NCBI GenBank assembly: GCA_030390025.1
Contig: CM059438.1
Coordinates: 19,964,001 to 20,028,000, forward strand
Direction: 5' to 3'
DNA: 64,000 nt
Source of the DNA: Squalus acanthias
Lineage: Eukaryota
The notes beneath the pieces are model-generated. The model was not told the origin of the DNA. It saw only the letters and a list, made by a program, of their open reading frames with translations, and ran no database searches. A program made the position numbers and the translations under genes. This document shows, piece by piece, positions 12,628 to 51,770 of this stretch. The first letter of the stretch is position 1. The number at the start of each line of letters is the position of its first letter.

Positions 12628-12671
<44 letters not shown>
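12628..12671 (+). repeat. Poly-G homopolymer (44 nt)
   Basis: Direct observation. Confidence 0.95.
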
Positions 12672-13743: not shown

Positions 13744-13952
13744 GATACTTCAAAGGCACATAAAAAGAAGAAAGGCCCTCTAAGTGGATCGCGTTCAAGT
13801 AAATACAGTAAAAGTGAGCAGAATGTGAATGAAGAGCTGCCAGGCTTAAAGAGTACAGGAACGGCCAGTGATCAGGCCAATACGTCCCACACACATCCTG
13901 CCCCCGGTCTTCAGGGAGATAATATTGCTGCACCGGCTGCACAGCGTGTAAG
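13744..13952 (+). CDS. TACC2: Internal coding exon, 209 bp, phase 0 to 2: DTSKAHKKKKGPLSGSRSSKYSKSEQNVNEELPGLKSTGTASDQANTSHTHPAPGLQGDNIAAPAAQRV
   Basis: Pyrimidine tract ctttcttcctgttcaactgtag|, stop-free frame with low-complexity composition, donor AAG|gtagga. It supplies exactly the phase change needed between the first exon and the downstream phase-2 exons. Confidence 0.72.
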
Positions 13953-16719: not shown

Positions 16720-19700
16720 AAACAATCTGTGACAAGTGTCTGCTGCTACAGGAACTCCAGCTCCGTGTTGATGAGCTGGAGTCTGAGCTTCAGACACTGC
16801 GACACATCAGGGAGGGGGAGAAGTACCTGGACTCTGTGTTTCAGGAGGTGGTCACACCTATGAAGTTAATTAATTCAGATGTAGCCCATGGTCAGGGACA
16901 GGAGGGTGTGACTACGAGTGAGGCAGGTACGGGGATCCAGGAGGTAGTGTTGGAGGAGCCGCAGCCCTTGCTCTTGTCCAACAGGTTCGAGGTTCTTACT
17001 CCCTGTGGGGACAGGAGCAGGGACTGCAGGGAGGATGAGCAACCTGGCCACAGCACCGTGGAACGGGGGGCCATTCAAGAGGGGGGAGTAAATAGAAATG
17101 TTGTAGTGGTAGGGGATAGTATTATTAGGGGGATAGATAGAGTTCTCTGCAGCCGAGAGCGAGAGTCCCGTAGGCTGTGTTGCCTGCCCGGTGCCAGGGT
17201 TAAGGACATCTCCTCTGGGCTGGAAAGAAACTTGCAGTGGGAGGGGGTGGATCCAGTTGTCGTGGTCCATGTTGGTACAAACGACGTAGATAGGACAAGG
17301 AAGCCGGTTCTGTTAAAGGAGTATGAGCAGCTAGGGGTCAAATTAAAAAACAGAACCTCAAGGGTAATAATCTCTGGATTATTACCTGAGCCATGAGCGA
17401 ATTTGGCTAGGACAAATAAAATTAGAGAGTTAAATGAGTGGCTCAAAGACTGGTGTGGGAGAAATGGGTTTTGCTTCCTGGGACACTGGCACCAGTACTG
17501 GGACAGGAGAGCTGTTCCATTGGGACGGGCTTCACTTGGCCAGTGCTGGGACTAGAGTCCTGGCGGATCATATAACTAGGGCTGTAGAGAGGGCTTTAAA
17601 CTAACTAGTGGGGGGGAGGTTCCTAGAGAGCAAATAATAAAAATGACAACAGAGAAGGTCATAGACTTAGGTAGCAGTGGGGAAATTAAAAACCAGACTG
17701 TGTCAGGAAGGGACAGAAGGTATGGAGTAAAAGGTAAAGTAATAAAAAGGGCAAAAGCAGGAACTAAGTGTCACAAAACATATTTGAAAGTTCTCTATCT
17801 GAATGCACGTAGCATTCGTAACAAAATAGACGAGTTAATGGCACAAATAACTACATATGGGTATGATCTTGTGGCCATCACAGAAACATGGCTGCAGGGT
17901 GACAATGCCTGGGAATTAAACATACCAGGTTATTTAACGATCAGGAAGGACAGGCAGGAAAGAAGGGGAGGTGGGGTGGCTATGTTAATAAAGGAAGGAA
18001 TCACTGTAATACAGAGAAATGATATTGGGTCAAAAGATCAGGATAATGAAACAGTTTGGGTGGAGATAAGGAATAATAAGGGGGAAAAAAACACTAGTGG
18101 GCGTAGTCTATAGGCCTCCGAATAGTTGCAACTCTGTTGGACGGAGTATCAATCAGGAAATAGTTGAGGTATGTAATAAGGGAACATCTATAATTATGGG
18201 GGATTTTAACTGTCATATTAATTGGACAAATCAAATTGGGCAGGGCTGTCTTGAGGATGAGTTCATTCAGTGTATTAGGGATGGGTTTCTTGAGCAGTAT
18301 GTAACTGAACCGACCAGGGGGCAAGCAACCTTAGATCTGGTCCTGTGTAACGAGACAGGATTAATTAAAAATGTCCTAGTAAAGGATCCCCTTGGAATGA
18401 GTGACCATAACATGGTTGAATTCCATATTCAATTAGAGGGTGAGAAGGTTGGATCTCAAACAAGCGTGCTAAGCTTGAATAAAGAAGACTATGAAGGTAT
18501 GCGAGCGGAATTGAGTAGAGTGGATTGGGAAAATAGATTAAAGGGTAAGACGATACTTGATCAGTGGTGTACATTTAAGGAGTTATTTTACAACTTCCAA
18601 AAAAAATATATTCCACTGAGAAGAAAAGGGTGTAAAAGAAAAGACAGTCATCCGTGGCTAAGTAAAGAAATTAAGGATCGTATTCGACTAAAAACAAGGG
18701 CTTTTAAGGTAGCCAAATCTAGTGGGAGGATAGAGGATTGGGAAAACTTTAAAAGACAGCAAAAAATAACAAAAAGCTTGATTAAGAAAAGGAAGATAGA
18801 TTATGAAAGTAAATTAGCAAAAAATATAAAAACAGATAGTAAGAGTTTTTATAGTTATATAAAAAGAAAAAGGGTGGCTAAAGTAAATGTTGGTCCCTTA
18901 GAGGATGAGACCGGGAAATTAATGGTGGGAAATATGGAGATGGCAAATACACTGAATGAATATTTTGTATCAGTCATTACAGTAGAGGACACTAAGAATA
19001 TCCCAACACTGGACAAACAGGGGGCTATAGGGGGGGAGGAGCTAAACACGATCAAAATCACTAAGGAAGTGGTACTCGGTAAAATAATGGGACTCAAGGC
19101 GGATAAATCACCTGGACCTGATGGCTTACATCCTAGGGTCTTGAGGGAAGTGGCGGTAGGGATTGTGGATGCATTGGTAATAATTTTCCAAAACTCCCTG
19201 GACTCAGCAAAGATCCCGGCAGACTGGAAAACTGCTAATGTAACACCCTTATTTAAAAAGGGCAGTAGACAGAAGGCTGGAAACTATAGACCGGTTAGCC
19301 TAACATCTGTGGTAGGTAAAATTTTGGAGTCCATTATTAAGGAGACAGTAACGGGACATTTGGATAATCATAATTTAATAGGACAAAGTCAGCATGGCTT
19401 TATGAAGGGGAAGTCATGTTTGACAAATTTGCTGGAGTTCTTTGAGGAAGTAACATACAGGGTGGATAAAGGGGAACCAGTGGATGTGGTGTATTTAGAC
19501 TTCCAAAAGGCATTTGACAAGGTGCCACACAAAAGATTATTGCTTAAGATAAAAAATCACGGGATTGGGGGTAATATTCTGGCATGGATAGAGGATTGGC
19601 TATCTAACAGAAGGCAGAGAGTTGGGATAAATGGTTCATTCTCAGACTGGCAATCAGTAACTAGTGGTGTTCCACAGGGGTCAGTGCTGGGTCCCCAACT

Positions 19701-20822
19701 CTTTACAATCTATATTAACGATTTGGAGGAGGGGATCGAGTGTAACATATCAAAGTTTGCAGATGATACTAAGATGGGAGGGAAAGTAGTGAGTGAGGAG
19801 GACATAAAAAATCTGCAAGGGGACATAGACAGGCTAAGTAAGTGGGCAGAGATTTGGCAGATGGAATACAATACTGGAAAGTGTGAGGTTATGCACTTTG
19901 GCAGGAAAAATAGTAGAGCAAGTTATTATCTTAATGGCAAGAAACTGGAAAGTACTGAAGTACAAAGGGATCTGGGGGTCCTGGTGCACGAAACTCAAAA
20001 GGTTAGTATGCAGGTGCAGCAAGTGATTAAGAAGGCCAATGGAATGTTGGCTTTCATTGCTAGGGGGATAGAATATAAAAATAGGGAGGTGAAGCTTCAG
20101 TTGTACAAGGTATTGGTGAGACCGCACCTGGAATACTGCATACAGTTTTGGTGTCCATACTTAAGAAAAGACATACTTGCTCTCGAGTCAGTACAAAGAA
20201 GGTTCACTTGGTTAATCCCGGGGATGAGGGGATGGACATATGAGGAGAGGTTGGGTAGATTGGGACTCTACTCATTGGAGTTCAGAAGAATGAGAGGCGA
20301 TCTTATTGAAACATATAAGATTGCGAAGGGGTTGGATGCGGGGAGGATGTTCCCGATGACGGGTGAGACGAGAACTAGGGGACATAGTCTTAGAATAAGG
20401 GGCTGCTCTTTCAAAACTGAGATGAGAAGGAACTACTTCACTCAGAGGGTGGTAGGTCCATGGAATATGCTGCCCCAAAAAGCTGTAGAAGCTACATCAT
20501 TACATAAATTTAAAACAGAAATAGACAGTTTCCTAGAAGTAAAGGGAATTAAAGGTTACGGGGAGCGGGCAGGAATTTGGACATGAGTCTAGCTTCGGAT
20601 CGGTCATGGCCCTGTGGGTAGCGTAGCGGGCCCAGGGGCCGTGTAGCCTGATCCTGCTCCTATTTTGTGTGTCCAATTCTGTTAGGTTCAGGAGATGGTT
20701 CTGTGATAGTAGATTGGTGGTTAGGATCAGATCAGCCATGATCTTATTGAATGGCGGAGCAGGCGCGAGGGGCCAATTGGCCTACTCCTGCTCCTATTTC
20801 TTATGTTCTTATGTTCTTATGT
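16720..20822 (+). mobile_element. CR1-clade LINE, 5'-truncated but near full length (ORF1 with esterase, ORF2 EN+RT)
   Basis: ORF1 shows CDKC plus a zipper, GDSIIRG, HVGTND and DGLHL (SGNH esterase), with a stop at 17394 and a later frameshift. ORF2 shows [30 protein letters not shown] and KFADD. The 3' UTR hairpin and ttcttatg tandem tail are present. Confidence 0.95.
17643..20586 (+). pseudogene. CR1 ORF2 (AP endonuclease + reverse transcriptase) with a single +1 frameshift at the G/A run 18080-18091
   Basis: ORFs 17643-18113 and 18097-20586 join into a contiguous EN-RT protein. Confidence 0.9.
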
Positions 20823-25682: not shown

Positions 25683-25766
25683 CCTTGCCAGTGAAAGCAT
25701 CCCAACAGATCTTCAGGTAAAGCAGTGTGACTCTATTCAGGCTACAGCTGGACCTGTTGTTCCTGG
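25683..25766 (+). CDS. TACC2: Candidate symmetric (phase 2-2) 84-bp coding exon: (S)LASESIPTDLQVKQCDSIQATAGPVVP(G)
   Basis: Acceptor ttttattgacag|, donor GG|gtatgt, length divisible by 3 and open in the phase required by the neighbouring exons. An alternative donor CAG|gtaaag lies inside it. Confidence 0.55.
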
Positions 25767-26044
25767 GTATGTAAGCTAGTTGCCTGGGTGTGTGGTTTAA
25801 TAAAATAAATAATGCACGAACCTTCTATAGAATTTACTTTGTGACTGCAGTTTTATAGATTGATAAATGGAGTGGTCCATTGGTGTATCTCAACCTGTGA
25901 TTCATCCTCATTGTTGGAATGTCACTGTGGTTGCATACATTACTCTGTGCATGAACATTATGGAGTGGTTTTTTGCATATGTTATAAATATAAAATATAA
26001 AGATTGAAAATAATTTCCCCTGAAAGACCAAAGCTTAACTTAAT

Positions 26045-27085
26045 TAATGGGCAGCTACTCTAATTGGCAGGATGTGACTTGTGGTGTCCCACAAGGATCT
26101 GTGTTGGGGCCTCAACTATTCACCATATTTATTAATGATTTAGATGATGGGATAAAAAACCCCCACATATCCAAGTTTGCCGATGACACAAAAATAGGCG
26201 GCATTGTAAGCAGTGTAGATGGAAGCATGAAATTACAAAAAGATATTAATAGATTAAGTGAATGGGCAAAATTGTGGCAAATGGATTTCAATGTAGGGAA
26301 ATATGAAGTCATCCACTTTGGACCTAAAAAGGATAGAACAGAGTACTTTCTAAATGATGAAAAGCTAGAAACAGTGGAGGTCCAAAGAGACTTGGGGGTC
26401 CAGGTACATAGATCATTAAGATGCCATGGACAGGTACAGAAAATAATCAAAATGGCTAATGGAATGCTGGCCTTTATATTTAGAGGATTAGAATACAAGG
26501 GGGTAGAAGTTATGCTGCAGCTGTACAAAACTCTGGCAAGACCACACCTGGAGCACTGTGAGCAGTTCTGGGCACCACACCTTAGGAAGGATATATTGGC
26601 CCTGGAGGGAGTGCAGCGTAGGTTTACCAGAATGATACCTGGACTTCAAGGGTTAAGTTACAAGGAGAGATTACACAAATTAGGGTTGTATTCCCTGGAA
26701 TTTAGAAGGTTAAGGGGTGATTTGATCGAAGTTTTCAAGATTTTAAGGAGAACTGGTAGGGTCGATAGAGAGAAACTGTTTCCGCTGGTTGGGAGTCTAG
26801 GACTAGGGGGCTAAAAAATAGAGCCAGGTCTTTCAGGAGTGAAGTTAGGAAACACTTCTACACGCAAAGGGTGGTAGAAGTTTGGAACTCTCTTCTGCAA
26901 ATGGTAATTGATGCTAGATCAATTGTTAAATCTGAGATTGACAGATTTTTACTAACCAAAGGTATTAAGGAATATGGGAAAAGGCGGGTATGTGGAGTTA
27001 GGTCACAGATCAGCCTTGATCTCATTGAATGGCAGAACAGGCTTGAGGGGCTAAATGGCCTACTCCTGTTCCTATATTCCTATGT
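26045..27085 (+). mobile_element. 5'-truncated CR1 LINE (RT C-terminal half and 3' tail)
   Basis: [20 protein letters not shown] and RRLRGDLIE motifs; tail ggcctactcctgttcctatattcctatgt. Confidence 0.93.
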
Positions 27086-38322: not shown

Positions 38323-39512
38323 ATTCTATCTGATGGTCATCCATTATTATTATGTAGTTAATATTGTCTATACAGTATTACACTGGAACCGTGAAAGCAA
38401 AAGCCACTGTAAAACATAGCGTAGGACATCTTTGTGTTCCATTGAAATATGACAGACATGATGAGGTTGATATTAACCCACCATGATGGGCTAGAGAGGG
38501 CCCGTGGGGTGGGGGGGGGGCGGGTGCGGGAAGGGGTAAACGTGACCCCAACCTGCCGCGTACATGCCTGCTGCCATTTTTACGGCGGCGGGTTGTATGA
38601 CCTGCCTGTGTCTCGTCTTGGAGAGACTGAACACTTCATTACAATATTTAAATCAGGCTCCCGCAGTGCAGTCGGGAGCCTGATTTAAATTTAACGGTTT
38701 GCGGCCGGGTTTCCCAGGGCTCGGGAAACCTAGCAGCTAAATGGAGACGGGAGCAGCTGGCTGCAGAACGTAAGTGCTTTTTAGAGCATTCCTTGTGAGC
38801 CAGGAGTAGCAGGAGTTCTCCCCCCAGCCCCTCAAGCAAACCTTCTGCCGATCGTGGCCTCTCCTCGCTGCCGTGATCTGCCTTAACCCGTGATCTTTCC
38901 GTCCCTCCCTCCCGATTGCCAGTCTGAATCCCCCTTCTACGACGTGATCTTTCCCTCCTTCCCTCCCGATTGCCAGTTTGACCCCCCATTTCCAACCCTG
39001 GAGATGGGAAGTAGGGTTAACTTTTCAGGTCGATGACCTGGGTTCGGACATAACCCTACTTTCCAGCATTTTCTGTTTTTATTGCAGAATATCAAATGTT
39101 TAGGCTTTCCCTCTTTCACTCTCTTTCTCTTATACTGGAAGAAAAGAGAGAGATGGAGTGGCAGCTTACATATAGGATGTGGCAAAAAAGTCATTTTGGG
39201 ATCGTTTTAATGTTGAACCAAAATTTGTGTGATACTTTGTTGTTATAATTTTCTGCTTGCAATAAGACCATTGATATTCATTGTCTTACACTGATTGCCA
39301 TGAGATAGCAGGACCGTCCTTTGATGCTGATTACGGTATAGAGGGAGTTCTTAACTTAATATCAAACTGATCACTGAATTAATGCATGCAGTGCTTGGCT
39401 TCAGCACGTTAATTCTGCTGCATGTGGACTGAATGAGCTACCGCCCGTTTGTGTGTCAGAGTTAATCTTGGTATTTTAGTGTGTAATTTTCAAACTTTTG
39501 CACTATTAACAG

Positions 39513-42500
39513 CCCCAAAACAAGTGACAATGATGTCCACTCTCCTGAAACTAATACTGAAAACAACCTGAATTCAACATCTCAAGAAATCCTGGTGGGA
39601 CAAAATGATGCATCACCAGAATGCAAAGGAAAAGCAAATCTTCAAATCACGGCAGATCCAAAGTCCCCTTTATTAGCTGAAAATAAAAATAGCTTATGGT
39701 CTTTACCGGAAGATACTGCATTTAAAGGAGATGCCTTGAAAGTAAATAATATATTCGGTGAGACAAAAACTACCGGGGCAGCAGATACTGGTCACGGCCT
39801 GAAAGCCAGTTCCTTACCAGTACAAGGAAATACTCCAGCGAGTGCAGCCGAGGAAAGGTTGTCAGATCTATTGCATCATGGCGAGCAGCTGGACGAAACA
39901 GATGAGCAGGGCTCTTACCCTTCACCTCAGGGCACAGTTGGGAGAGATCAGTTACCTGCCCAAGAGACTGAGTGCGACCTAGTGTTGCAAGTCTCAGGAT
40001 GCAAAGAATCCATCATAGAAGAAAATCCTGCAAAAAGCACAGATGGCAAAAGCGGTCTGTTCATGGTAGAAATCCAAGACCCAAAGTATCTGACGCCAGC
40101 GAGTTTAGAAAAACATGCTGAGTATGTGACAATTGCAGGTCACAATGTTATCAGTCATTCACAAGTCAAAGTTGAAAATGAGCAGCTCACTGAAGAAGTG
40201 GTCACTGATCAAGAAGAAAAGTGCGTTTTGCCAAAGGAAGGTTCTATTTCAGTCTCAGAATCTGCGCTAAATTTGTCTGAGGGAGTGGCACTCGAGGGGA
40301 ATGAGTTGAGTTTGAGTTGTGATACTGATCACCATCAAACATCTAACGGTGAAGAAAACGATTGCAGTCTTCTGACGGGTACAGAAAATCAAAGAAGCCC
40401 TGCAAAAATGGAGTTACTCAACATCCGCGCATCAGATCTTGATACTGCTAAACTGAATGTGACACTGTTAGCAGTCGGTGATAAGCAACAGAAAACACAC
40501 AACACCAAAGAACAAGAAAATATCTCCACGGAAAATGTCTCCAGCCTTGTAGCTCGGATGGAGAATATTCCAGAAACCGTCGTGCTGTCCTCAATCCAGC
40601 AGAATCCCAGTACTGGGAGAACACAAGAAAAACTAATGGGTTTCAGTTGCGACAGTGAACAGGGTCAAATATGCGATCAGGAAACAAAAACGACTGCTGG
40701 CAAAGGAGATTTGGGCAGTCTTGAAATGCAAATCGAAAATATCGTACTTCCAATCAACCCTCAAAACCTTGCTGCATTGGAGCCGAAAGAGACAGCATTT
40801 GTTGTCAAAAGCGAACAGCAGATATGTCGCAGTGAATCAAAAGGAAAGGTTTGTGAAGACAATGTGTGGAATCTTCAGGAATCCACCAAGTCAGCACTGA
40901 GTTATCAGGATACTTATTCAGAGAAAGCACGAAATGAGCCGCTGGGTTGCTGCTGTGACAGTAACCAGCAAACACGAGGCAGTGAGAAGCAAGCAAAAGC
41001 TTCCGAAGAAAAATTATCCAGTGTGCAGATTGACACAGAGAACTATTCTTTCCCAGAAACGTCCGAACTGACACTATGTCAGGACTTGGACTTAGTGGAA
41101 GTAAAAGAAATGTTACTGGGTTTCCAAAGCGACCAGCAAGTCTGCAGCACTGAAAAACAAGATGGCAGACCCGAGAAAAGCGGGCGCACCCTTCAAACTG
41201 GTCTGGAAAATGGGCTGTTGTCAGATCGAATGGGACTGTCTTCTAGCTCTCAGAATCCTGATTCGATGGAAGTGAAAGGAAAAATACTGAATTTAACCTC
41301 TCCTAGCGAACAGCAAGAAGACACCAGTGAGATACAAAATCAAGTCTGTGAGGAGGGGTTGTCTGAGGAGGGGCTGTCCTGCTTGCAAAAGGACATGGTT
41401 CTAGAAAGCAAGATGTTTCCAGACGCGTTTGAGCTGACCCGAAGCTCTCAGACTCCTGACACATTGGGTGTAAATGAGGTATCGGTTTTCAGTACTGAGC
41501 AACAGCAGGCAGGTAACAGCCTGACAAAAGAAAACATTTGTGAAGGAATTGTGTGTAGCCTTCACACTGTATGTGCGGAATCACCACCTAGCTCACAGAT
41601 TCCTGGTACAGTTATACCAAAAGAGACACTATTATCTGTCACTAATACACAGCAAGCATGTAGCAGCGAAAAGAAAGAGAAGGCTTCTAAAGAAAACCAG
41701 TATGACTTGCAGACTAGGTTGGAAAGTTCCACATTCCCAGAAAGCAGTGAATTATTGCTTAACCTTCAAAACTGTGGTTCAAAAGAAGCAACAAAGGAGA
41801 AACTATCAGATTTCAGACATTTCACTGGACAAACATCGACATGCACTACAGAAACACTCTGTCAAGAAGATCTGAGCAACATTCAGATGATAAAAAATAT
41901 TATAATCCCAGCAGCCATGCAGCTGCCAGCTGGCTCGGACCTTCGTGGTACAGCTGAAGTGAAAGAGTCATTAATGTCTGTCAGTAGTGAACAGACATGC
42001 AGCAGTGAAAAGCAAGAGAAAGTGTCTGAAGGAAATGTGTACAGCCCTCCAGCTACTATGGAAAGTACTTTGTTTTCAGAAACGGCAGATTTACCACTTG
42101 CTCCTCAGAATATTGGCTCAGCAGGCACAGAAAATGAACAGTCGCGTTTGAGCCACGGCAGTGTACAGCAAACAGCAGAGAGAGAAATCAAAGAACATCC
42201 CGATAAAGGAGAAGTGTGCAGCCTTCAGATTGATCGGCGAGATATGATTTCAGAAAGAGTGGAATCATTGCTGGCCTCTCAGCATATTGCTGGCGCTGGA
42301 GTGAAAGAGGCATCACTGACCTTGAGTGGTGAACAACTACAACTGTTCATCAGTGAAGAACAGCAAAAGGATTATGAGGGGGACGTACGCAGCCTCCAGG
42401 AAGGTCCTGAAGATACTGTACCGTCAACAAGCACAGAATTAGCACTGAACCCTCAGGATGCTACAAGTAAAGAAGAGTTGTTGGAGGGATTTGCTCATGA

Positions 42501-45500
42501 GCAACAGCAAATGTGTGACAGTGAGTTCAAAGTGGGCCTCTATAAAATGGATTCAGACAGCCCTCAGATGCCTGTAGAAAATATTATCACTCCAGAAGTC
42601 ACTAAATTACCACTTAGCACGCAGAATCCTAATGCAGTGGAACATGGAGAGTTATTAATGGGATTTAGCAACGAACAGCAGCAGGCAGGCAGTGAGATAG
42701 CCAAAGAAAAAGACTGTGAAGAAAACGTACAGAACCTTCAGACTGACACCGAGAAGGTCGTGGATTTGTCACCCAGCTCCGCGATTCCTGGTATTGATGA
42801 ACTAACAGAAACGTTGTTTAGCCAGAGAGAACAGCAAATATGTGACAAAGAAAAACAAGAAAAGGTGTCTGAAGACAAAATTTACAACTTCCCAATTGGT
42901 ACAGAAACCAGTTTGTTCCAACTTACCGAGGAGTTACCTCCTACCACTCAGAATATTGGTTCAATAGCTACAGAAAATGAACTGTTGCCTTTGAGTTATG
43001 ATAGCGGACAGGAAACAGCACATGGGGAAATAGAAGAAAATCTCTCTAAAGAAAAATTGTTCAGCTTTCCGACTGATCGAGGAGGTATGATCCCAGAAAG
43101 AGCGGTACTGCTGCCTGCCTCTCAGCATACTGCTGGCGCTGGAGTGAATGAGGCATTACTGACCTTGAGTGGTGAACAAGTACAAACATTCGTTAGCGAA
43201 CAACAGCAAAAGGATTATGAGGGGGATGTGTGCAGTCTCCAGGAAGGTCCTGAAGATACTGTACTGTCAGCAAGCACAGAATTAGCACTGAATCCTCAGG
43301 ATGCTACAAGTAAAGAAGAAACATCAGAGGGTTTTGATTGTTCTGCTGAGCAACAGCAAATGCGTGACACTGAATTCAAGCATGGACTCCCTAAAAAGAA
43401 TTTAGACAAGTCTCAAATATCTTTGGAAAACATCTTTCCTCAAGAATCCATAAAGTTGTCAATCGACGTAGAGAATCCTGATGTAGAGGAACAAAGCAAT
43501 AAATTACTGGGAGACAGTGAGATAAAAGAAAACATATTTGAAGCAAATGAGCAAAACCTTCAGACTGAGGCTGGACACATTTCAACCCCAGAAGTACTGA
43601 AATCACCAGCCAGCTGCCTGGATCCTGATACTACAAAACTGAAAGAAACAATAATTGGATTCAGTAGTGAACATCAGCAAGTAGATGACAATAGGAAACA
43701 AGAAGTGACTGAAGAAAATCTGTGCTGCTTTCACACTGCTACAGAAAGTATGGACAATATTTTGATCCCGAAAGCTATGGAATTGGCAAAAGACCTTCAG
43801 GATTCCGGTACGAATGAAATGAAAGAGGAACTTTTGGGCTTTGGCATTGATAGAAAGCAGCAACAAATAGCCACAAAAGTAATAGAAGACAACTACTATG
43901 AAGAAAATGTAGGTTGTCTTCAACAAGGTGAAGAAAATATTCCAGAACCCGCAACCACAGAATGCACTGCTCAGTATCCTAATACTGAGGCATTGAAAGA
44001 GAGATTGATGAATTTCAATGGTGATGTGGAACATCAGCAAACGTGTGGGAGTGCAACAAAAGTAAATATTTGTGCTGAAGGTATGAGCAGTCTTCAGGTG
44101 GGTATGGAAACCACCCTTCCAGAATCCATCACATTGACACAGAGTCCTCCCATTCCTCAGGCACTTGAAGAAAATGATATATCTCTGGAATTCAGCAATG
44201 AACAACACCAAATCTACAGTAGTCCAACAGAAGAAAAAATCTATGAGGACAATGTGTGCAGTCTTCTGAGCATTATTGAAAATGTAGCTGCACCGACTAT
44301 AGAATTGTCAGCTGGCCCAGAGAATCAGCGCATAGAGGAGGCAACGGAAAACACACTGGGGTTCAGCTGTGAAAATGACCAGCAGGAAAAATGCAGTGAT
44401 GAAACGAAAGAGAAAACTTGTGAAGAAAATGTACACAGCTTCCAAATGGATACAGCAGACGCCCTCCCAGAAACCATAGAACAGATTCCCACCGTAGTGA
44501 CTCATAGTACGGCAGAAGTGAAAGAAGCATTACCTGGTTTTATTAATGAACAACAGCAAATATGTATCATTGAGGCAAAAGAAAATGTCTGTGAAGAAAA
44601 CCTTTGTAGGCTTCAGATGGTTAAAGACAATATTGTACTTTCAGAAGTCTTTGAACTGACTCCTGGCTCACAGAGTCCTGACACATCCAAAGAAACTTTA
44701 TTGGCAGTTGTTAGTGAACAACTGCAAACAGGTGTCAGTGTAATGAAAGACAACGTTCCTGAAGACAATATGTGGAGCCTTCAGACAGGTACTGAGCATA
44801 CTGTACCCGCAGGAACCATGGAACTGACAGCTAGCCTTCAGAATCATGATGAAGAGAAAGGAAAAGAGACGTTACTGAGATTTCGTGGGGATCTAAAACA
44901 AGAACTCATACTCAACAATGAATCAAAAGAAAATCTTCATGAAGAGAATATGCAGGTGTCAAAAACAAGTACAGAAGACATTAAGCTCTCAGTGAGCAAG
45001 GAATTGACAGATTGCACACAGGACCTTAATACTGCTGTCCTGCCAGAGAACGTAATGGGTTTCAGTGGTGAACATCAAGCAGAAAGCATGGACAGCCTCC
45101 AAGTTGGCAATGCAAATAATTTGTTTCCAGAAACCATCAAATTGATACCTGGTATTCAGATTCCTGATGGAGTGAATGAGGCATTACTGACCTTGAGTGG
45201 TGAACAAGTACAAACATTCGTTAGTGAAGAACAGCAAAAGGATTATGAGGGGGATGTGTGCAGTCTCCAGGAAGGTCCTGAAGATACTGTACCGTCAGCA
45301 AGCACAGAATTAGCACTGAATCCTCAGGTTGCTACAAGTAAAGAAGAAACATCAGAGGGTTTTGATTGTTCTGCTGAGCAACAGCAAATGCGTGACACTG
45401 AATTCAAGCATGGACTCCCTAAAAAGAATTTAGACAAGTCTCAAATATCTTTGGAAAACATCTTTCCTCAAGAATCCATAAAGTTGTCAATCGACGTAGA

Positions 45501-48500
45501 GAATCCTGATGTAGAGGAACAAAGCAATAAATTACTGGGAGACAGTGAGATAAAAGAAAACATATTTGGAGCAAATGAGCCAAACCTTCAGACTGAGGCT
45601 GGACACATTTCAACCCCAGAAGTACTGAAATCACCAGCCAGCTGCCTGGATCCTGATACTACAAAACTGAAAGAAACAATAATTGGATTCAGTAGTGAAC
45701 ATCAGCAAGTAGATGACAATAGGAAACAAGAAGTGACTGAAGAAAATCTGTGCTGCTTTCACACTGCTACAGAAAGTATGGACAATATTTTGATCCCGAA
45801 AGCTATGGAATTGGCAAAAGACCTTCAGGATTCCGGTACGAATGAAATGAAAGAGGAACTTTTGGGCTTTGGCATTGATAGAAAGCAACAACAAATAACC
45901 ACAAAAGGAATAGAAGACAACTACTATGAAGAAAATGTAGGTTGTCTTCAACAAGGTGAAGAAAATATTCCAGAACCCGCAACCACAGAATGCACTGCTC
46001 AGTATCCTAATACTGAGGTATTGAAAGAGAGATTGATGAATTTCAATGGTGATGTGGAACATCAGCAAACATGTGGGAGTGCAACAAAAGTAAATATTTG
46101 TGCTGAAGGTATGAGCAGTCTTCAGGTGGGTATGGAAACCACCCTTCCAGAATCCATCACATTGACGCAGAGTCCTCCCATTCCTCAGGCACTTGAAGAA
46201 AATGATATATCTCTGGAATTCAGCAATGAACAACATCAAATCTACAGTAGTCCAACAGAAGAAAAAATCTATGAGGACAATGTGTGCAGTCTTCTGAGCA
46301 TTATTGAAAATGTAGCTGCACCGACTATAGAATTGTCAGCTGGCCCAGAGAATCAGCACATAGAGGAGGCAACGGAAAACACACTGGGATTCAGCTGTGA
46401 AAATGACCAGCAGGAAAAATGCAGTGATGAAATGAAAGAGAAAACTTGTGAAGAAAATGTACACAGCTTCCAATTGGATACAGCAGACGCCCCCCCAGAA
46501 ACCATAGAACAGATTCCCACCGTAGTGACTCATAGTACGGCAGAAGTGAAAGAAGCATTACCTGGTTTTATTAATGAACAACAGCAGATATGTATCATTG
46601 AGGCAAAAGAAAATGTCTGTGAAGAAAATCTTTGTAGGCTTCAGATGGTTAAAGACAATATTGTACTTTCAGAAGTCTTTGAACTGACTCCTGGCTCACA
46701 GAGTCCTGACACATCCAAAGAAACTTTATTGGCAGTTGTTAGTGAACAACTGCAAACAGATGTCAGTGTAATGAAAGACAACGTTCCTGAAGACAATATG
46801 TGGAGCCTTCAGACAGGTACTGAGCATACTGTACCCGCAGGAACCATGGAACTGACAGCTAGCCTTCAGAATCATGATGAAGAGAAAGGAAAAGAGACGT
46901 TACTGAGATTTCGTGGGGATCTAAAACAAGAACTCATACTCGACAATGAATCAAAAGAAAATCTTCATGAAGAGAATATGGAGGTGTCAAAAACAAGTAC
47001 AGAAGACATTAAGCTCTCAGTGAGCAAGGAATTGACAGATTGCACACAGGACCTTAATACTGCTGTCCTGCCAGAGAACGTAATGGGTTTCAGTGGTGAA
47101 CATCAAGCAGAAAGCATGGACAGCCTCCAAGTTGGCAATGCAAATAATTTGTTTCCAGAAACCATCAAATTGATACCTGGTATTCAGATTCCTGATGGAG
47201 TGAACGAGGCATTACTGACCTTGAGTGGTGAACAAGTACAAACATTCGTTAGTGAAGAACAGCAAAAGGATTATGAGGGGATGTGTGCAGTCTCCAGGAA
47301 GGTCCTGAAGATACTGTACCGTCAGCAAGCACAGAATTAGCACTGAATCCTCAGGTTGCTACAAGTAAAGAAGAAATATCAGAGGGTTTTGATTGTTCTG
47401 CTGAACAACAGCAAATGCGTGACACTGAATTCAAGCATGGACTCCCTAAAAAGAATTTAGACAAGTCTCAAATATCTTTGGAAAACATCTTTCCTCAAGA
47501 ATCCATAAAGTTGTCAATCGACGTAGAGAATCCTGATGTAGAGGAACAAAGCAATAAATTACTGGGAGATAGTGAGATAAAAGAAAACATATTTGGAGCA
47601 AATGAGCAAAACCTTCAGACTGAGGCTGGACACATTTCAACCCCAGAAGTACTGAAATCACCAGCCAGCTGCCTGGATCCTGATACTACAAAACTGAAAG
47701 AAACAATAATTGGATTCAGTAGTGAACATCAGCAAGTAGATGACAATAGGAAACAAGAAGTGACTGAAGAAAATCTGTGCTGCTTTCACACTGCTACAGA
47801 AAGTATGGACAATATTTTGACCCCGAAAGCTATGGAATTGGCAAAAGACCTTCAGGATTCCGGTACGAATGAAATGAAAGAGGAACTTTTGGGCTTTGGC
47901 ATTGATAGAAAGCAACAACAAATAGCCACAAAAGTAATAGAAGACAACTACTATGAAGAAAATGTAGGTTGTCTTCAACAAGGTGAAGAAAGTATTCCAG
48001 AACCCACAACCACAGAATGCACTGCTCAGTATCCTAATACTGAGGCATTGAAAGAGAGATTGATGAATTTCAATGTTGATGTGGAACATCAGCAAACGTG
48101 TGGGAGTGCAACAAAAGTAAATATTTGTGCTGAAGGTATGAGCAGTCTTCAGGTGGGTATGGAAACCACCCTTCCAGAATCCATCACATTGACACAGAGT
48201 CCTCCCATTCCTCAGGCACGTGAAGAAAATGATATATCTCTGGAATTCAGCAATGAACAACACCAAATCTACAGTAGTCCAACAGAAGAAAAAATCTATG
48301 AGGACAATGTGTGCAGTCTTCTGAGCATTATTGAAAATGTAGCTGCACCGACTATAGAATTGTCAGCTGGCCCAGAGAATCAGCACATAGAGGAGGCAAC
48401 GGAAAACACACTGGGGTTCAGCTGTGAAAATGACCAGCAGGAAAAATGCAGTGATGAAACGAAAGAGAAAACTTGTGAAGAAAATGTACACAGCTTCCAA

Positions 48501-51154
48501 TTGGATACAGCAGACGCCCTCCCAGAAACCATAGAACAGATTCCCACCGTAGTGACTCATAGTACGGCAGAAGTGAAAGAAGCATTACCTGGTTTTATTA
48601 ATGAACAACAGCAAATATGTATCATTGAGGCAAAAGAAAATGTCTGTGAAGAAAACCTTTGTAGGCTTCAGATGGTTAAAGACAATATTGTACTTTCAGA
48701 AGTCTTTGAACTGACTTCTGGCTCACAGAGTCCTGACACATCCAAAGAAACTTTATTGGCAGTTGTTAGTGAACAACTGCAAACAGGTGTCAGTGTAATG
48801 AAAGACAACGTTTCTGAAGACAATATGTGGAGTCTTCAGACAGGTACTGAGCATACTGTACCCGCAGGAACCATGGAACTGACAGCTAGCCTTCAGAATC
48901 ATGATGAAGAGAAAGGAAAAGAGACGTTACTGAGATTTCGTGGGGATCTAAAACAAGAACTCATACTCGACAATGAATCAAAAGAAAATCTTCATGAAGA
49001 GAATATGCAGGTGTCAAAAACAAGTACAGAAGACATTAAGCTCTCAGTGAGCAAGGAATTGACAGATTGCACACAGGACCTTAATACTGCTGTCCTGCCA
49101 GAGAACGTAATGGGTTTCAGTGGTGAACATCAAGCAGAAAGCATGGACAGCCTCCAAGTTGGCAATGCAAATAATTTGTTTCCAGAAACCATCAAATTGA
49201 TACCCGGTATTCAGATTCCTGATGCAAAGGATGTGAATGTCATATCGATTTTAACTAGTGAGCAACAGCAGATGTGCAGCAGTGTAATTAAAGAGGAAGA
49301 AGCATATGGAAAAGCTGTACATATCTCGCAGAGCGCTGTGGAAAATATTATTATCCCTGAAAGTATGAAATTGGCATCAACACCTCAGGATTCTGACACC
49401 TCTGAACTGATGGCTTTCAGTAATGAGCATCAGCAGATATGTAGCAGTGGAATGAAAACAGAAACCTGTAAAGAAGATGATTATATAAAAAATAACTTAT
49501 ATCCAGACATCACCATGATATTACCATCTAGCCCTCCAAAAAAGGATAAAATGGACTTTAGGGAGAAGCTATCAGATGTCAGTTGGAATACTGAACAGCA
49601 ACATTGGAACATTGAAGTACACGACGACATCTCAGAAATGAACATGTTAAAATTAAAGGCCAATACAGAAATCGCCACACCCTCAGAAGCAATAAAATTG
49701 CCATCCAACTTGCAGATTCATGAGCTGGAGAATGGAAAAGATTATTTATTGGCTTTCACTTTTGATGGTGACAAGAGTCAAATTTCCAGCGGAGAACCAA
49801 AAGAAAAACTCTTTAAAGAAGATGTGAGCAGCCTGAAGATGGGTGGAGAAAGTATAATCCCAGAAGCCAATAAACCGACAGCCATGCCTCAGGACCCTGA
49901 AGAAGTAGAGCTGAAGGGAACATCATTGGACTTTGAGAACGAACAACAGCAGACCTGCAACACTGAAAGCAAAGAAGTGAGCAACCTTCTAACTGACACT
50001 GATAATATTTCAACCCAAGAAACTATGGAACTGCTATCTAACTCCCAGAAATGTGATACTGAGAAAGATGAAGATAAATTATTGGGTTTCAGCCATGACA
50101 CTGAACAACAGACATGCGATGGCGAAACAAAAATAAATATCTTCAAAGAAAATGCATGCATCGATAAGATGGGTATAGAAAACTCTGTTCATCCAGAAAG
50201 TGTGAAATTGTTATCTAGCTCTGATATTGCTACTGAACTGCAAGAGACTACAAACAATTTTCTTAGTGAAGTTCAGCAAATATCCACCACTGAAACAAAA
50301 GAAAACTTCTGTGTTGAAAATGTACATAGTCTTGAAAATATAATTCCAGAATCCAATGAGCTATCTTCCAGTTCCTTGCATTCTGACGCAACAATAAAAG
50401 AGGATATTTTAAGGCAAAGGCATGACAGTGAGGAACAACAGACCCTGAACATGAGTGGAAAAGAAAGTGTTTACGCAAATGGTGTTGAGAGCATGGAAAA
50501 AGGCATGACTTTTGGAATAGATCCCGAGATAAAGTTTCCTCTTTGCACTCCGACTGTTTCTGAAGCTGTGGAAATAAACCAGTTATTGGCTGCAACATCA
50601 GATAGTGAGCATCAACAGAGAAATGACAATCTAATTTCACATAGTACCTGCGAAGAGAAAGTAAGTTTGGAGATGGATTTTGCTTTCGGAAGTGATAAGC
50701 TCCCAGAGGCAGTGGAGAAAGAGACCACCTCTGCAGGAGGCACAGACTATAAAAACTATGCTGCCTCTCAGGAAACTCAGCTTACAAAATCCATGACAAC
50801 TAAAAGCAAGGAACCCAGCAGCTCAACCGAACACCTGCTCTTGTTGCGCACAAGAGATGCAACAGAAAGTTGCTTAGAAATTGATGTCAAAGAACAGGAA
50901 AACATTGTGGGTGTTCTACCAACAGGGAATTTTGCTGGAATAGATCAAACTTCCATTAAAAAAGAGTCCTGTATGTCTGATACTGAATTTGGAAATGAGT
51001 TCTTATTTGCAATAGAACCAACAGCCAGACCAGAAGGCAGATCCCCGCACACATTAGCAGATGTAAAGGAAGAGGGGGTTTTGCCAGCTGCATGTGAAAA
51101 CACTGAAGTCAGAAAAACTGAAACAGGACTTAAAGAAGGATTAAAGACTGAAAG
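39513..51154 (+). CDS. TACC2: Giant coding exon (11642 bp, or 11643 bp = 3881 codons if one G is restored) encoding an acidic, repetitive, probably disordered region
   Basis: Acceptor cactattaacag| at 39512, with the frame open from there (PKTSDNDVHSPETNTENN...). Covers ORFs 39595-47340 and 47283-51221, joined by one 1-bp frameshift. Donor AAG|gtacat at 51155, phase 2-2. Position and phase match the ~5 kb giant exon of mammalian TACC2 as recalled. Confidence 0.85.
43141..49223 (+). repeat. Coding tandem repeat: 3 x 2028 bp (676 aa); copies start at 43141, 45169 and 47197
   Basis: ggagtgaa(t/c)gaggcattactgacc recurs at exact 2028-bp spacing, translations are nearly identical, and the third copy is 1 bp short. 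Confidence 0.97.
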
Positions 51155-51275
51155 GTACATAGGTCCTTGCTTCTATACTTTACCACATAAATGTATTTAT
51201 ATTGTTATCAAACGGTTGTAATAAGAGTATTCCATTTTTCTAACTGTTCTTTTTCCTGCTCTCTGTTGACTGTAG

Positions 51276-51386
51276 TCCTTCTCCTGAATCTGCCTCTTCT
51301 TCACCTTCTGCACTTGGAAAGGATGCTGTGGCTGTAATTGGCACAGTAACAACAGGTGCACTGGATAAAGGCATCATGACCACAAG
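51276..51386 (+). CDS. TACC2: 111-bp symmetric exon after the giant exon: (S)PSPESASSSPSALGKDAVAVIGTVTTGALDKGIMTT
   Basis: Strong pyrimidine tract and tgtag|, donor AAG|gtagaa, 121-bp upstream intron. The pattern PSxxxKDAxxVxxxVT matches the recalled human TACC2 post-giant-exon peptide PSVPKKDAPRVMDKVT. Confidence 0.75.
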
Positions 51387-51454: not shown

Positions 51455-51770
51455 TAGAACCATAGATGTTTACAGCACAGAAAGAGGCCCTTTGGCCCAT
51501 TGTGTCTGTGCCTGCTCTTGGCTGGATCAAACTAATTCTAATCCCACTGCCCGGCTCCCTCCCCATATCCCTGCATCTTTCTCTGCTTCAAAATGTATCC
51601 GTTTTTCCCATAAATGATACACTAGTCTCGGCTTCAACTGCTCTCTGTGGCAACGCATTCCATGCTCCAACAAGTGCAAAGACATTTCTCTTCACCTCTC
51701 TCCTCACTCTCTTAGTGACAATTTTAAATTGGTGATTCCTCATCACTGTCGCCCCCAACCAGAGGAAATA
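51455..51770 (-). mobile_element. Old CR1 3' fragment
   Basis: catagatgtttacagcacagaaagaggcccttttggccc-type tail and degenerate RT end. Confidence 0.55.

Follow-up and report, generated by a model that had tools for sequence, protein, structure and literature searches.

A giant TACC2 coding exon of Squalus acanthias built from degenerate acidic monomers, with a triplicated 12-monomer block

The stretch of DNA that was analyzed (the window) comprises 64,000 nt of the Squalus acanthias contig CM059438.1 (GCA_030390025.1; 19,964,001..20,028,000, forward strand), and contains a giant symmetric (phase 2-2) TACC2 coding exon at 39513..51154 on the plus strand. The exon is bounded by AG and GT splice sites, RNA-like contigs end at both of its limits (the RNA-like run starts at 39511 and ends at 51152-51154), and orthologs support the assignment. 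An upstream TACC2 coding exon at 13744..13952 (+), which ends in phase 2 at a GT donor, was located by tblastn with the Heptranchias, Pristiophorus, and skate orthologs (69-88% identity). An 84-nt symmetric exon at 25683..25766 (+) is present in some ortholog models and missing from others, and the next coding exon, of 111 nt, lies at 51276..51386 (+), after a 121-nt intron.

The preliminary description had named the gene as TACC2, and the present results bear this out. The closest protein homologs are chondrichthyan TACC2 proteins, and comparison of the flanking exons with orthologs, proposed earlier as a check, revealed collinear matches on the plus strand, from the window to TACC_C exons ~170-176 kb beyond the giant exon. 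These TACC_C (PF05010) exons, at 20.184-20.190 Mb on C14, the same contig and strand as the giant exon, also answer the earlier question of whether a TACC domain is encoded downstream. The genome holds three TACC loci. Searches with the annotated TACC2 of skate, elephant shark, coelacanth, lizard, and monkey (n=5) showed that the giant-exon locus is nearest to annotated TACC2 (76-100% vs 42-86%) and is the best match at each exon for the TACC2 domains with 5/5 queries, in a comparison that was made without labelled TACC1 or TACC3 sequences or a tree. On the minus strand, an ATE_C gene is found ~200 kb upstream (C14, 19.756-19.771 Mb), in keeping with the ATE1-TACC2 synteny of the human gene order. 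Ortholog gene models hold both the giant exon and the TACC exons in linear isoforms. No linear junction from the giant exon to a downstream exon was found in the contigs examined (6 of the 24 listed read runs), and the full-length protein, with array and TACC domain, thus rests on the ortholog models. The X1 contigs do not cover 51276-51386, and X8, like X1 a presumed RNA run, barely covers the donor; neither was counted as evidence.

As assembled, the exon is 11,642 nt long and is not one open frame, because copy 3 of an internal 2028-bp block has 4 G at 47277..47280 (+), where copies 1 and 2 have 5 G. Frame 0 is open from 39487 to 47337 (2617 aa) and stops at 47338, and the remainder is read in another frame (47277-51218). 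The missing G is present in contigs of 4/4 independent runs (X1, X6, X12, X22), so the frameshift is likely an assembly slip (a homopolymer error), and the true state of the exon is likely 11,643 nt, or ~3880 codons (3881 with the G restored). A single exon of ~3880 codons had been described earlier; its limits and likely true length hold, but the assembled frame is interrupted and the correction had gone unstated. Left uncorrected, the frameshift would truncate the gene model in annotation. Indels of 6 and 27 nt were seen in reads within the exon. Contig joints that resembled exon skips were rejected, as they arise from repeats at 39060-39093 and 51455-51731.

Downstream of a non-repeat N-terminal part (39514..40290, +), which includes a stretch of ~80 aa homologous to amniote TACC2, the exon consists largely of an array of 60 degenerate ~57-aa (~170-bp) monomers at 40291..50399 (+), 36 of them distinct and ancestral, as defined by a monomer HMM, ortholog labelling, and the k-mer spectrum. 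The monomer period claimed earlier is borne out by a mean spacing of 168.5 bp (median 171 bp) and by 8-mer distances, which, once the 2028-bp block is collapsed to one copy, peak at 150-179, 330-359, 480-509, and 660-689 bp (z 5.0-9.9 relative to 100 codon shuffles). The monomers are 22-46% identical to the first, and no invariant column was found among 33 of them; Tandem Repeats Finder did not detect the ~170-bp monomer in the giant exon, and Pfam revealed no family there. Matches to the array across the genome all fall inside the giant exon (5/5 for DNA, 19/19 for protein). Satellite DNA proper was ruled out, since the array is coding and its genomic matches are confined to this exon. The organization is nevertheless that of a satellite-type higher-order repeat, with diverged monomers in a fixed order and a 12-monomer block present three times at far higher identity.

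Two layers of duplication are superimposed on the monomers, as the preliminary description had stated. The older, an 843-bp (5-monomer) duplication at 42007..43493 (+), pairs 42007-42644 with 42850-43493 at 75% identity (dS 0.50, dN/dS 0.50); monomers 13 and 18 are still 83-90% alike in DNA, and ortholog labelling places the event before the shark-ray split. The younger is the 2028-bp block of 12 monomers, repeated three times across 43139-49224 with 98.7-98.9% identity between copies. Self-comparison of the sequence places copy 1 (monomers 18-29, also delimited by the monomer HMM) at 43139..45166, copy 2 at 45167..47194, and copy 3, which lacks one base in the assembly, at 47195..49224, all on the plus strand. 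Each copy carries 9-14 private substitutions, and dN/dS among copies is 0.37-0.54, based on 7-11 synonymous changes. The new junction coincides with a monomer boundary, preserves the frame, and shows 2 bp of microhomology.

Read evidence was taken from contigs of 6 of the 24 listed runs, in which contig depth does not equal copy number. In runs of organisms A and B, contigs are interrupted at the block ends and depth is raised, and the relatives C and F cross the block as a single copy. Contigs stop at the ends of the block in X1 (depth 70-95 vs 17-38), X2 (8.6 vs 2-4), and X6 (29-35 vs 11-21), X12 and X22 each have one contig through the block at flat depth, and the leftover depth at the block junction is ~52 in X1, ~9 in X6, and 0 in X12 and X22. 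The X6 depth looks nearer to two block copies than to three. The triplication and the 11.6-kb length might have been produced by the assembly, the real exon having one block and ~7.6 kb: at least one base error is likely within copy 3, no contig covers more than one block, and a single copy is found in C, F, and most sharks. However, three copies with private substitutions of their own are incompatible with two single-copy haplotypes, and in independent runs from three studies the block ends coincide with contig breaks or higher depth, and copy-private alleles occur, which makes an artefact very improbable. Even less credible is a real frameshift allele that breaks the exon in this animal and truncates the long isoform. 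The assembled frame does stop, and a four-G allele could be hidden, since rare variants are lost in contigs and the three copies are collapsed together; but the five-G form was recovered in 4/4 runs (X1, X6, X12, X22), no listed four-G contig bridges the site, and the 1291 codons past the frameshift are open.

Ortholog labelling revealed monomers 1-36 in identical order in full-length shark orthologs; in rays and elephant shark the series is interrupted by gaps. By this sequence comparison the 36-monomer array is ancestral to sharks and rays. On that basis the S. acanthias lineage added 4 kb (2 x 676 aa, about +53%) and did not double the exon. The earlier view that this lineage more than doubled it was not sustained, as the homologous span already measures ~2300-2570 aa (2293-2571) in 7/10 measured cartilaginous fishes. 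Nor is the architecture unique to the lineage: in other sharks the span attains 2813, 3327, and 3686 aa through the multiplication of different blocks, and four of 15 other cartilaginous fishes have 3- or 5-monomer multiplications of their own. By ortholog labelling, monomers 13-17 occur twice in Pristiophorus and five times in Heptranchias, and monomers 26-28 six times in Cetorhinus and three or more times in Carcharodon. The multiplied units are 91-100% alike within species and 71-73% alike between Pristiophorus and Heptranchias, and these expansions always involve whole monomers, in frame.

The monomer was not detected in bony-vertebrate TACC2 (0/106 proteins above 8 bits). A shark profile of the non-repeat N-terminal part of the exon scored >15 bits in 46/106 of these proteins (reversed controls, 0/106), and the ~80-aa stretch is still alignable to turtles and crocodilians. 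In a model-free tile test, the window scored 0.92, three other cartilaginous fishes 0.33-0.56, coelacanth 0.40, and nine amniotes 0-0.30; the coelacanth score is ambiguous, and this species was not counted as periodic. Against 1.84 billion representatives, the monomer profile found four strong matches, all chondrichthyan TACC2. Two weak matches (E ~2e-4) were discarded: neither matches the TACC C-terminus, and one is an ankyrin/CCDC144C protein that has repeats of its own. A word-indexed search among proteins of 117-2000 aa gave P0013 as its sole match.

The encoded stretch is acidic (net charge -440), as described earlier. A structure model of five monomers (16 orthologs, alignment 17 deep) showed one short helix with pLDDT 39.7 and pTM 0.10 and no confident repeating fold of solenoid or bead type; the disorder result is not final, since the alignment is just 17 deep. 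The model of a monomer by itself was one long helix (pLDDT 75, pTM 0.37), which we read as the probable usual behavior of short E/Q-rich peptides. Composition and predicted disorder suggest that the array is likely a long disordered spacer before the microtubule-associated TACC coiled coil. Among the literature matches listed, none established a function for the long TACC2 isoform. The monomer may instead be a functional module, such as a recurring docking motif or a unit whose folding is induced by binding, so that block multiplication adds binding sites under selection. The retention of monomer order across sharks and rays and the single-monomer helix are in its favor, as is the greater conservation across orthologs of consensus-matching residues for 13/14 residue types, although this test is biased because consensus residues are more often ancestral. 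We consider this reading unlikely: the monomers lack an invariant column and are undetectable in the bony-vertebrate proteins, conservation across orthologs is lower in the array (0.53) than in the non-repeat exon ends (0.60, 0.58), and the block that multiplied differs by lineage.

The sole X1 contig through the donor at 51154 (51154..51154, +) runs unbroken into the exon's own acceptor, joining it in frame to the first 27 nt of the exon (39513-39539). This back-splice-type junction was seen in one contig of one run (X1, presumed RNA) with 27 nt on its short side; it is absent from the 264 kb of genome examined, and the DNA runs X6, X12, and X22 continue past 51154 into the intron. A splice from a canonical donor back to a canonical acceptor upstream, in a sequence absent from the genomic stretch examined, is one hallmark of an exonic circRNA, and the junction likely reflects a putative circular RNA of ~11.6 kb. 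In one frame, the predicted circle of 11,643 nt has no stop codon and 82 Met. The circle could even be what the exon mainly yields, perhaps serving rolling-circle translation of a repeat polyprotein, with the linear giant isoform minor. According to PMC6376117 and PMC4479058, long exons circularize preferentially, and PMC11724312 indicates that circles without a stop can undergo several rounds of translation. However, any symmetric coding exon yields a stop-free circle, the flanking introns hold two short inverted matches (80-87 bp) among 8, the downstream intron is very short, and ortholog models place the exon in linear isoforms. With the narrow basis of the junction itself, this makes a predominant circle improbable, and we hold equally doubtful the combined proposal of an evolvable ruler, lengthened by whole-monomer blocks, that also yields an abundant stop-free circRNA of ~11.6 kb, the template for a giant acidic repeat polyprotein made by rolling-circle translation.

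The mammalian TACC2 giant exon is ~5 kb long. Bony-vertebrate long isoforms share with the shark proteins the TACC_C C-terminus, a long acidic N-terminal region, and the ~80-aa alignable stretch, but lack the monomer and are shorter (2340-3287 aa in the listed proteins vs ~3600-5150 aa in full-length cartilaginous-fish models). Giant repeat exons or regions are known from Ki-67, filaggrin, AHNAK, spidroins, and Balbiani-ring genes, and as super-repeats from nebulin; their in-frame repeats are degenerate, often disordered, often copy-variable, and in some cases hierarchical. The shark exon resembles these in its very large size and degenerate in-frame repeats. No sequence relation of the monomer to any of them was found by Pfam or profile search, and the shark exon differs in that its monomer order is frozen in sharks and rays, and the sub-block that expands varies from lineage to lineage. 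Coding higher-order repeats as such are already known: NBPF/Olduvai (DUF1220) triplets have been described in satellite higher-order terms, with diverged coding monomers multiplied as near-identical blocks to lineage-specific counts (PMC11675761). There, the units are ~1.6 kb, contain introns, and occur in several genes, whereas the shark monomer is ~170 bp, in one exon of a single-copy gene, with a lineage-dependent block size (3, 5, or 12). The candidate circle shares with single-exon, infinite-ORF circles such as circEGFR the joint between an exon's own donor and acceptor, a length divisible by 3, and freedom from stops. Single-exon circles average 404-709 nt (PMC6376117) and circEGFR has 249 nt (PMC11724312), compared with ~11.6 kb for the shark circle, whose circularity is putative and whose downstream intron has 121 nt. 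The shark exon was not described among the literature matches listed for TACC2, shark circRNA, and giant exons or tandem repeats.

Taken together, we favor, with a probability of about 0.72, the reading that the giant TACC2 exon is an ancient 36-unit acidic array, likely a disordered spacer, that likely grows by in-register unequal recombination, with monomers 18-29 tripled here. The best reading is a length-tolerant disordered acidic spacer that is also a recurrent hot spot of in-register recombination. The array and its monomer order are common to sharks and rays, and the new junction, at a monomer boundary and in frame with its microhomology, marks the first duplication in this lineage; the resulting ~99% identical blocks could then have misaligned to give the third copy. 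Different blocks, again whole monomers in frame, have multiplied in other sharks. Selection may hold the frame and the acidic, disordered character while length is tolerated; constraint is suggested by the dN/dS values among the copies and for the old duplication and by the 6- and 27-nt indels. The exon may also be back-spliced onto itself, as one run suggests, the stop-free circle being most likely a by-product of its size.

If the back-splice is true, the circle would be far larger than the single-exon circles reported in PMC6376117 and PMC11724312, and would directly probe how exon length relates to circularization. The exon offers a clean natural series for the evolution of coding higher-order repeats, with 36 recognizable monomers frozen in sharks and rays and at least five species with 3-, 5-, or 12-monomer multiplications, one of them recent and missing in relatives just 3-5% diverged. 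How far a disordered region tolerates changes in length, and where the breakpoints come from, can be tested across genomes.

The giant exon lies on contig C14 of a 3.7-Gb genome, at window positions 39513-51154 on the forward strand, bounded by an acceptor AG and a donor GT in phase 2-2. The three nested repeat layers claimed in the preliminary description were recovered by self-comparison, a monomer HMM and an 8-mer spectrum. Self-comparison of the window gave diagonals of 4058 bp (98.7% identity) at an offset of 2028 bp, 2030 bp (98.9%) at twice that offset, and 644 bp (75%) at 843 bp. The iterated HMM counted 12 monomers in each 2028-bp block and 60 in all, the array running from 40291 to 50399; it found zero in shuffled or reversed control sequences. 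Once the block was collapsed, 8-mer distances showed a ~170-bp periodicity, with peak z values of 5.0-9.9 against 100 codon shuffles. A single open exon was also described; as assembled, it is split over two frames (39487-47337 and 47277-51218), and is stop-free, at 11,643 nt, once one G is restored to the block's five-G run, which is one G short in copy 3. A private four-G allele might account for the shorter run, rare variants being dropped from contigs, but an extra G behind 47276 is present in contigs of four sequencing runs (X1, X6, X12 and X22), and we read the missing G as an assembly slip. Six nucleotides of the assembly (50411-50416), an in-frame indel, are missing in X1, X2, X6 and X8 and kept in X12 and X22, and a 44-G run at 12628-12671 is possibly an assembly artefact.

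The triplication of the block (43139-45166, 45167-47194 and 47195-49224) is a real feature. Each copy carries 9-14 private substitutions, and the block junction falls on a monomer boundary, with TG common to both sides. The block was tested in six of 24 runs. In X1 (organism A, presumed RNA) and in X2 and X6 (organism B, presumed DNA), contigs end at or near the block limits (43169, 45169 and 49195/49224) and depth within the block is raised; X8 showed no clear rise. X12, from organism C, and X22, from organism F, show 133 and 217 differences, respectively, over ~4.1 kb; in each, one contig spans the right block end at flat depth. A block-to-block contig was inferred from summed junction-bin depth beyond the listed contigs (~52 in X1, ~9 in X6, 0 in X12 and X22). 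Depth indicates about three copies in X1 and about two in X6, a weak hint of copy-number variation. At 47196-47280, X22 has a depth of 41, versus 11.6, on a contig running into monomer 13/18, hinting at a 5-monomer block multiplication of organism F's own.

The giant exon belongs to TACC2, which in humans is a centrosome- and microtubule-associated protein with a C-terminal TACC domain, as a passage of PMC12669629 describes. Its first 1200 residues matched 13 proteins, 11 of which contain TACC_C; those that carry names belong to cartilaginous fishes. The best match, to Pristiophorus at 81%, suggests a squalomorph shark. TACC_C exons lie on the same contig and strand (C14 20.184-20.190 Mb, +), ortholog exons map in order in between, and annotated TACC2 domains from five vertebrates matched this locus better than two other TACC loci. 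ATE_C lies ~200 kb upstream; a second match is on a different contig (G000:C22:34322138-34322299). The Pristiophorus model P0001, named 'titin homolog isoform X2', is TACC2 and stops shortly past the giant exon, without the TACC domain; P0009 and P0016, labelled 'futsch-like', are TACC2 as well. A second TACC2 expansion site, at exon level, is L015 (C14:20028386-20032442), with three near-identical 147-nt symmetric exons at 64386-64532, 67632-67778 and 68296-68442, counted on from the window. These sit within local duplications with splice sites intact, 63865-64691 (827 bp) being 98.9% identical to 67775-68601; at this position other sharks have 47-49-aa repeats in varying number. Open frames of endonuclease/reverse-transcriptase type in TACC2 introns (18070-20583, 16722-17393 and 26044-26811) resemble CR1-like LINE copies.

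Ortholog spans and monomer labels were taken from gene-model proteins, each monomer being labelled by its best match to monomers 1-36. Full-length shark orthologs carry monomers 1-36 in identical order, and rays and elephant shark a series with gaps or uncertain labels. Seven of the ten species measured have a homologous span of 2293-2571 aa; longer spans belong to Pristiophorus (2813 aa), Cetorhinus (3327 aa) and Heptranchias (3686 aa). The window's, minus its extra blocks, is 2528 aa. Clean block multiplications occur in 4/15 other species (monomers 13-17 two- and fivefold; 26-28 sixfold and at least threefold), which makes the expansion less peculiar to this lineage than had been claimed. 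Multiplied units are 91-100% alike within a species and 90% alike between the two lamniforms, while those of Pristiophorus are 71-73% alike to those of Heptranchias; they may therefore be either independent or homogenised following a common origin. Monomers 13 and 18 are still 83-90% alike in DNA, a likely seed of the 5-monomer events. Narcine has an 11-aa micro-repeat inside the array (P0009, residues ~1290-1440). In a full HMMER scan covering 1.84 billion representatives, the only strong monomer matches were four chondrichthyan TACC2 proteins. Because the exon's N-terminal part matches 46 of 106 bony-vertebrate TACC2 proteins and the monomer exceeds 8 bits in none (the 106 being the best listed of 637 matches, from coelacanth and amniotes only), the exon is probably a homologue of the amniote TACC2 region, and the array would be either specific to the shark lineage or eroded past detection elsewhere.

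The encoded protein is 13% Glu, with a net charge of -440 and 93 Cys, and a Pfam search of the exon returned no family. One monomer is predicted as a single helix (pLDDT 75, pTM 0.37) and five monomers fold at pLDDT 39.7. Between block copies dN/dS is 0.37-0.54, estimated from few changes, and the old duplication gives 0.50; conservation of the array is slightly below that of the exon's ends. These properties fit a disordered, length-tolerant spacer as the putative function. The exon is organised like a higher-order repeat, yet is not satellite DNA, since every genome match of the repeat falls within it. The Olduvai triplets, presented in PMC11675761, were already a known coding higher-order repeat. 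Other examples exist besides them.

X1 contigs begin and end at the exon's splice sites, and one, crossing the donor, continues with 27 letters identical to the exon's own first 27, whereas past the donor the DNA runs continue into the intron. The donor-to-own-acceptor junction is absent from the 264 kb of genome examined and is in frame, the closed exon being stop-free in that frame. Back-splicing, at a probability of about 0.7, is the simplest reading of this one contig from one run. Less likely alternatives are trans-splicing, a library artefact or duplication of the whole exon in organism A. Long exons favour circularisation, according to passages of PMC6376117 and PMC4479058, and circles without a stop are translatable, according to one of PMC11724312. 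Arguing against a dedicated circular RNA from the exon, the downstream intron is just 121 nt and the flanking introns hold only two short inverted matches among eight matches; longer inverted matches lie further out. The exon was undescribed in the literature searched, mostly as listings, and the available passages of PMC8087818 treat short human TACC2 isoforms and mention no circle. As the search excluded circRNA databases, supplements and most subscription papers, a human TACC2 circle may already be catalogued. The candidate giant circle and the recurrent expansions extend beyond the view of the giant exon taken in the preliminary description, to which the circle was not visible.
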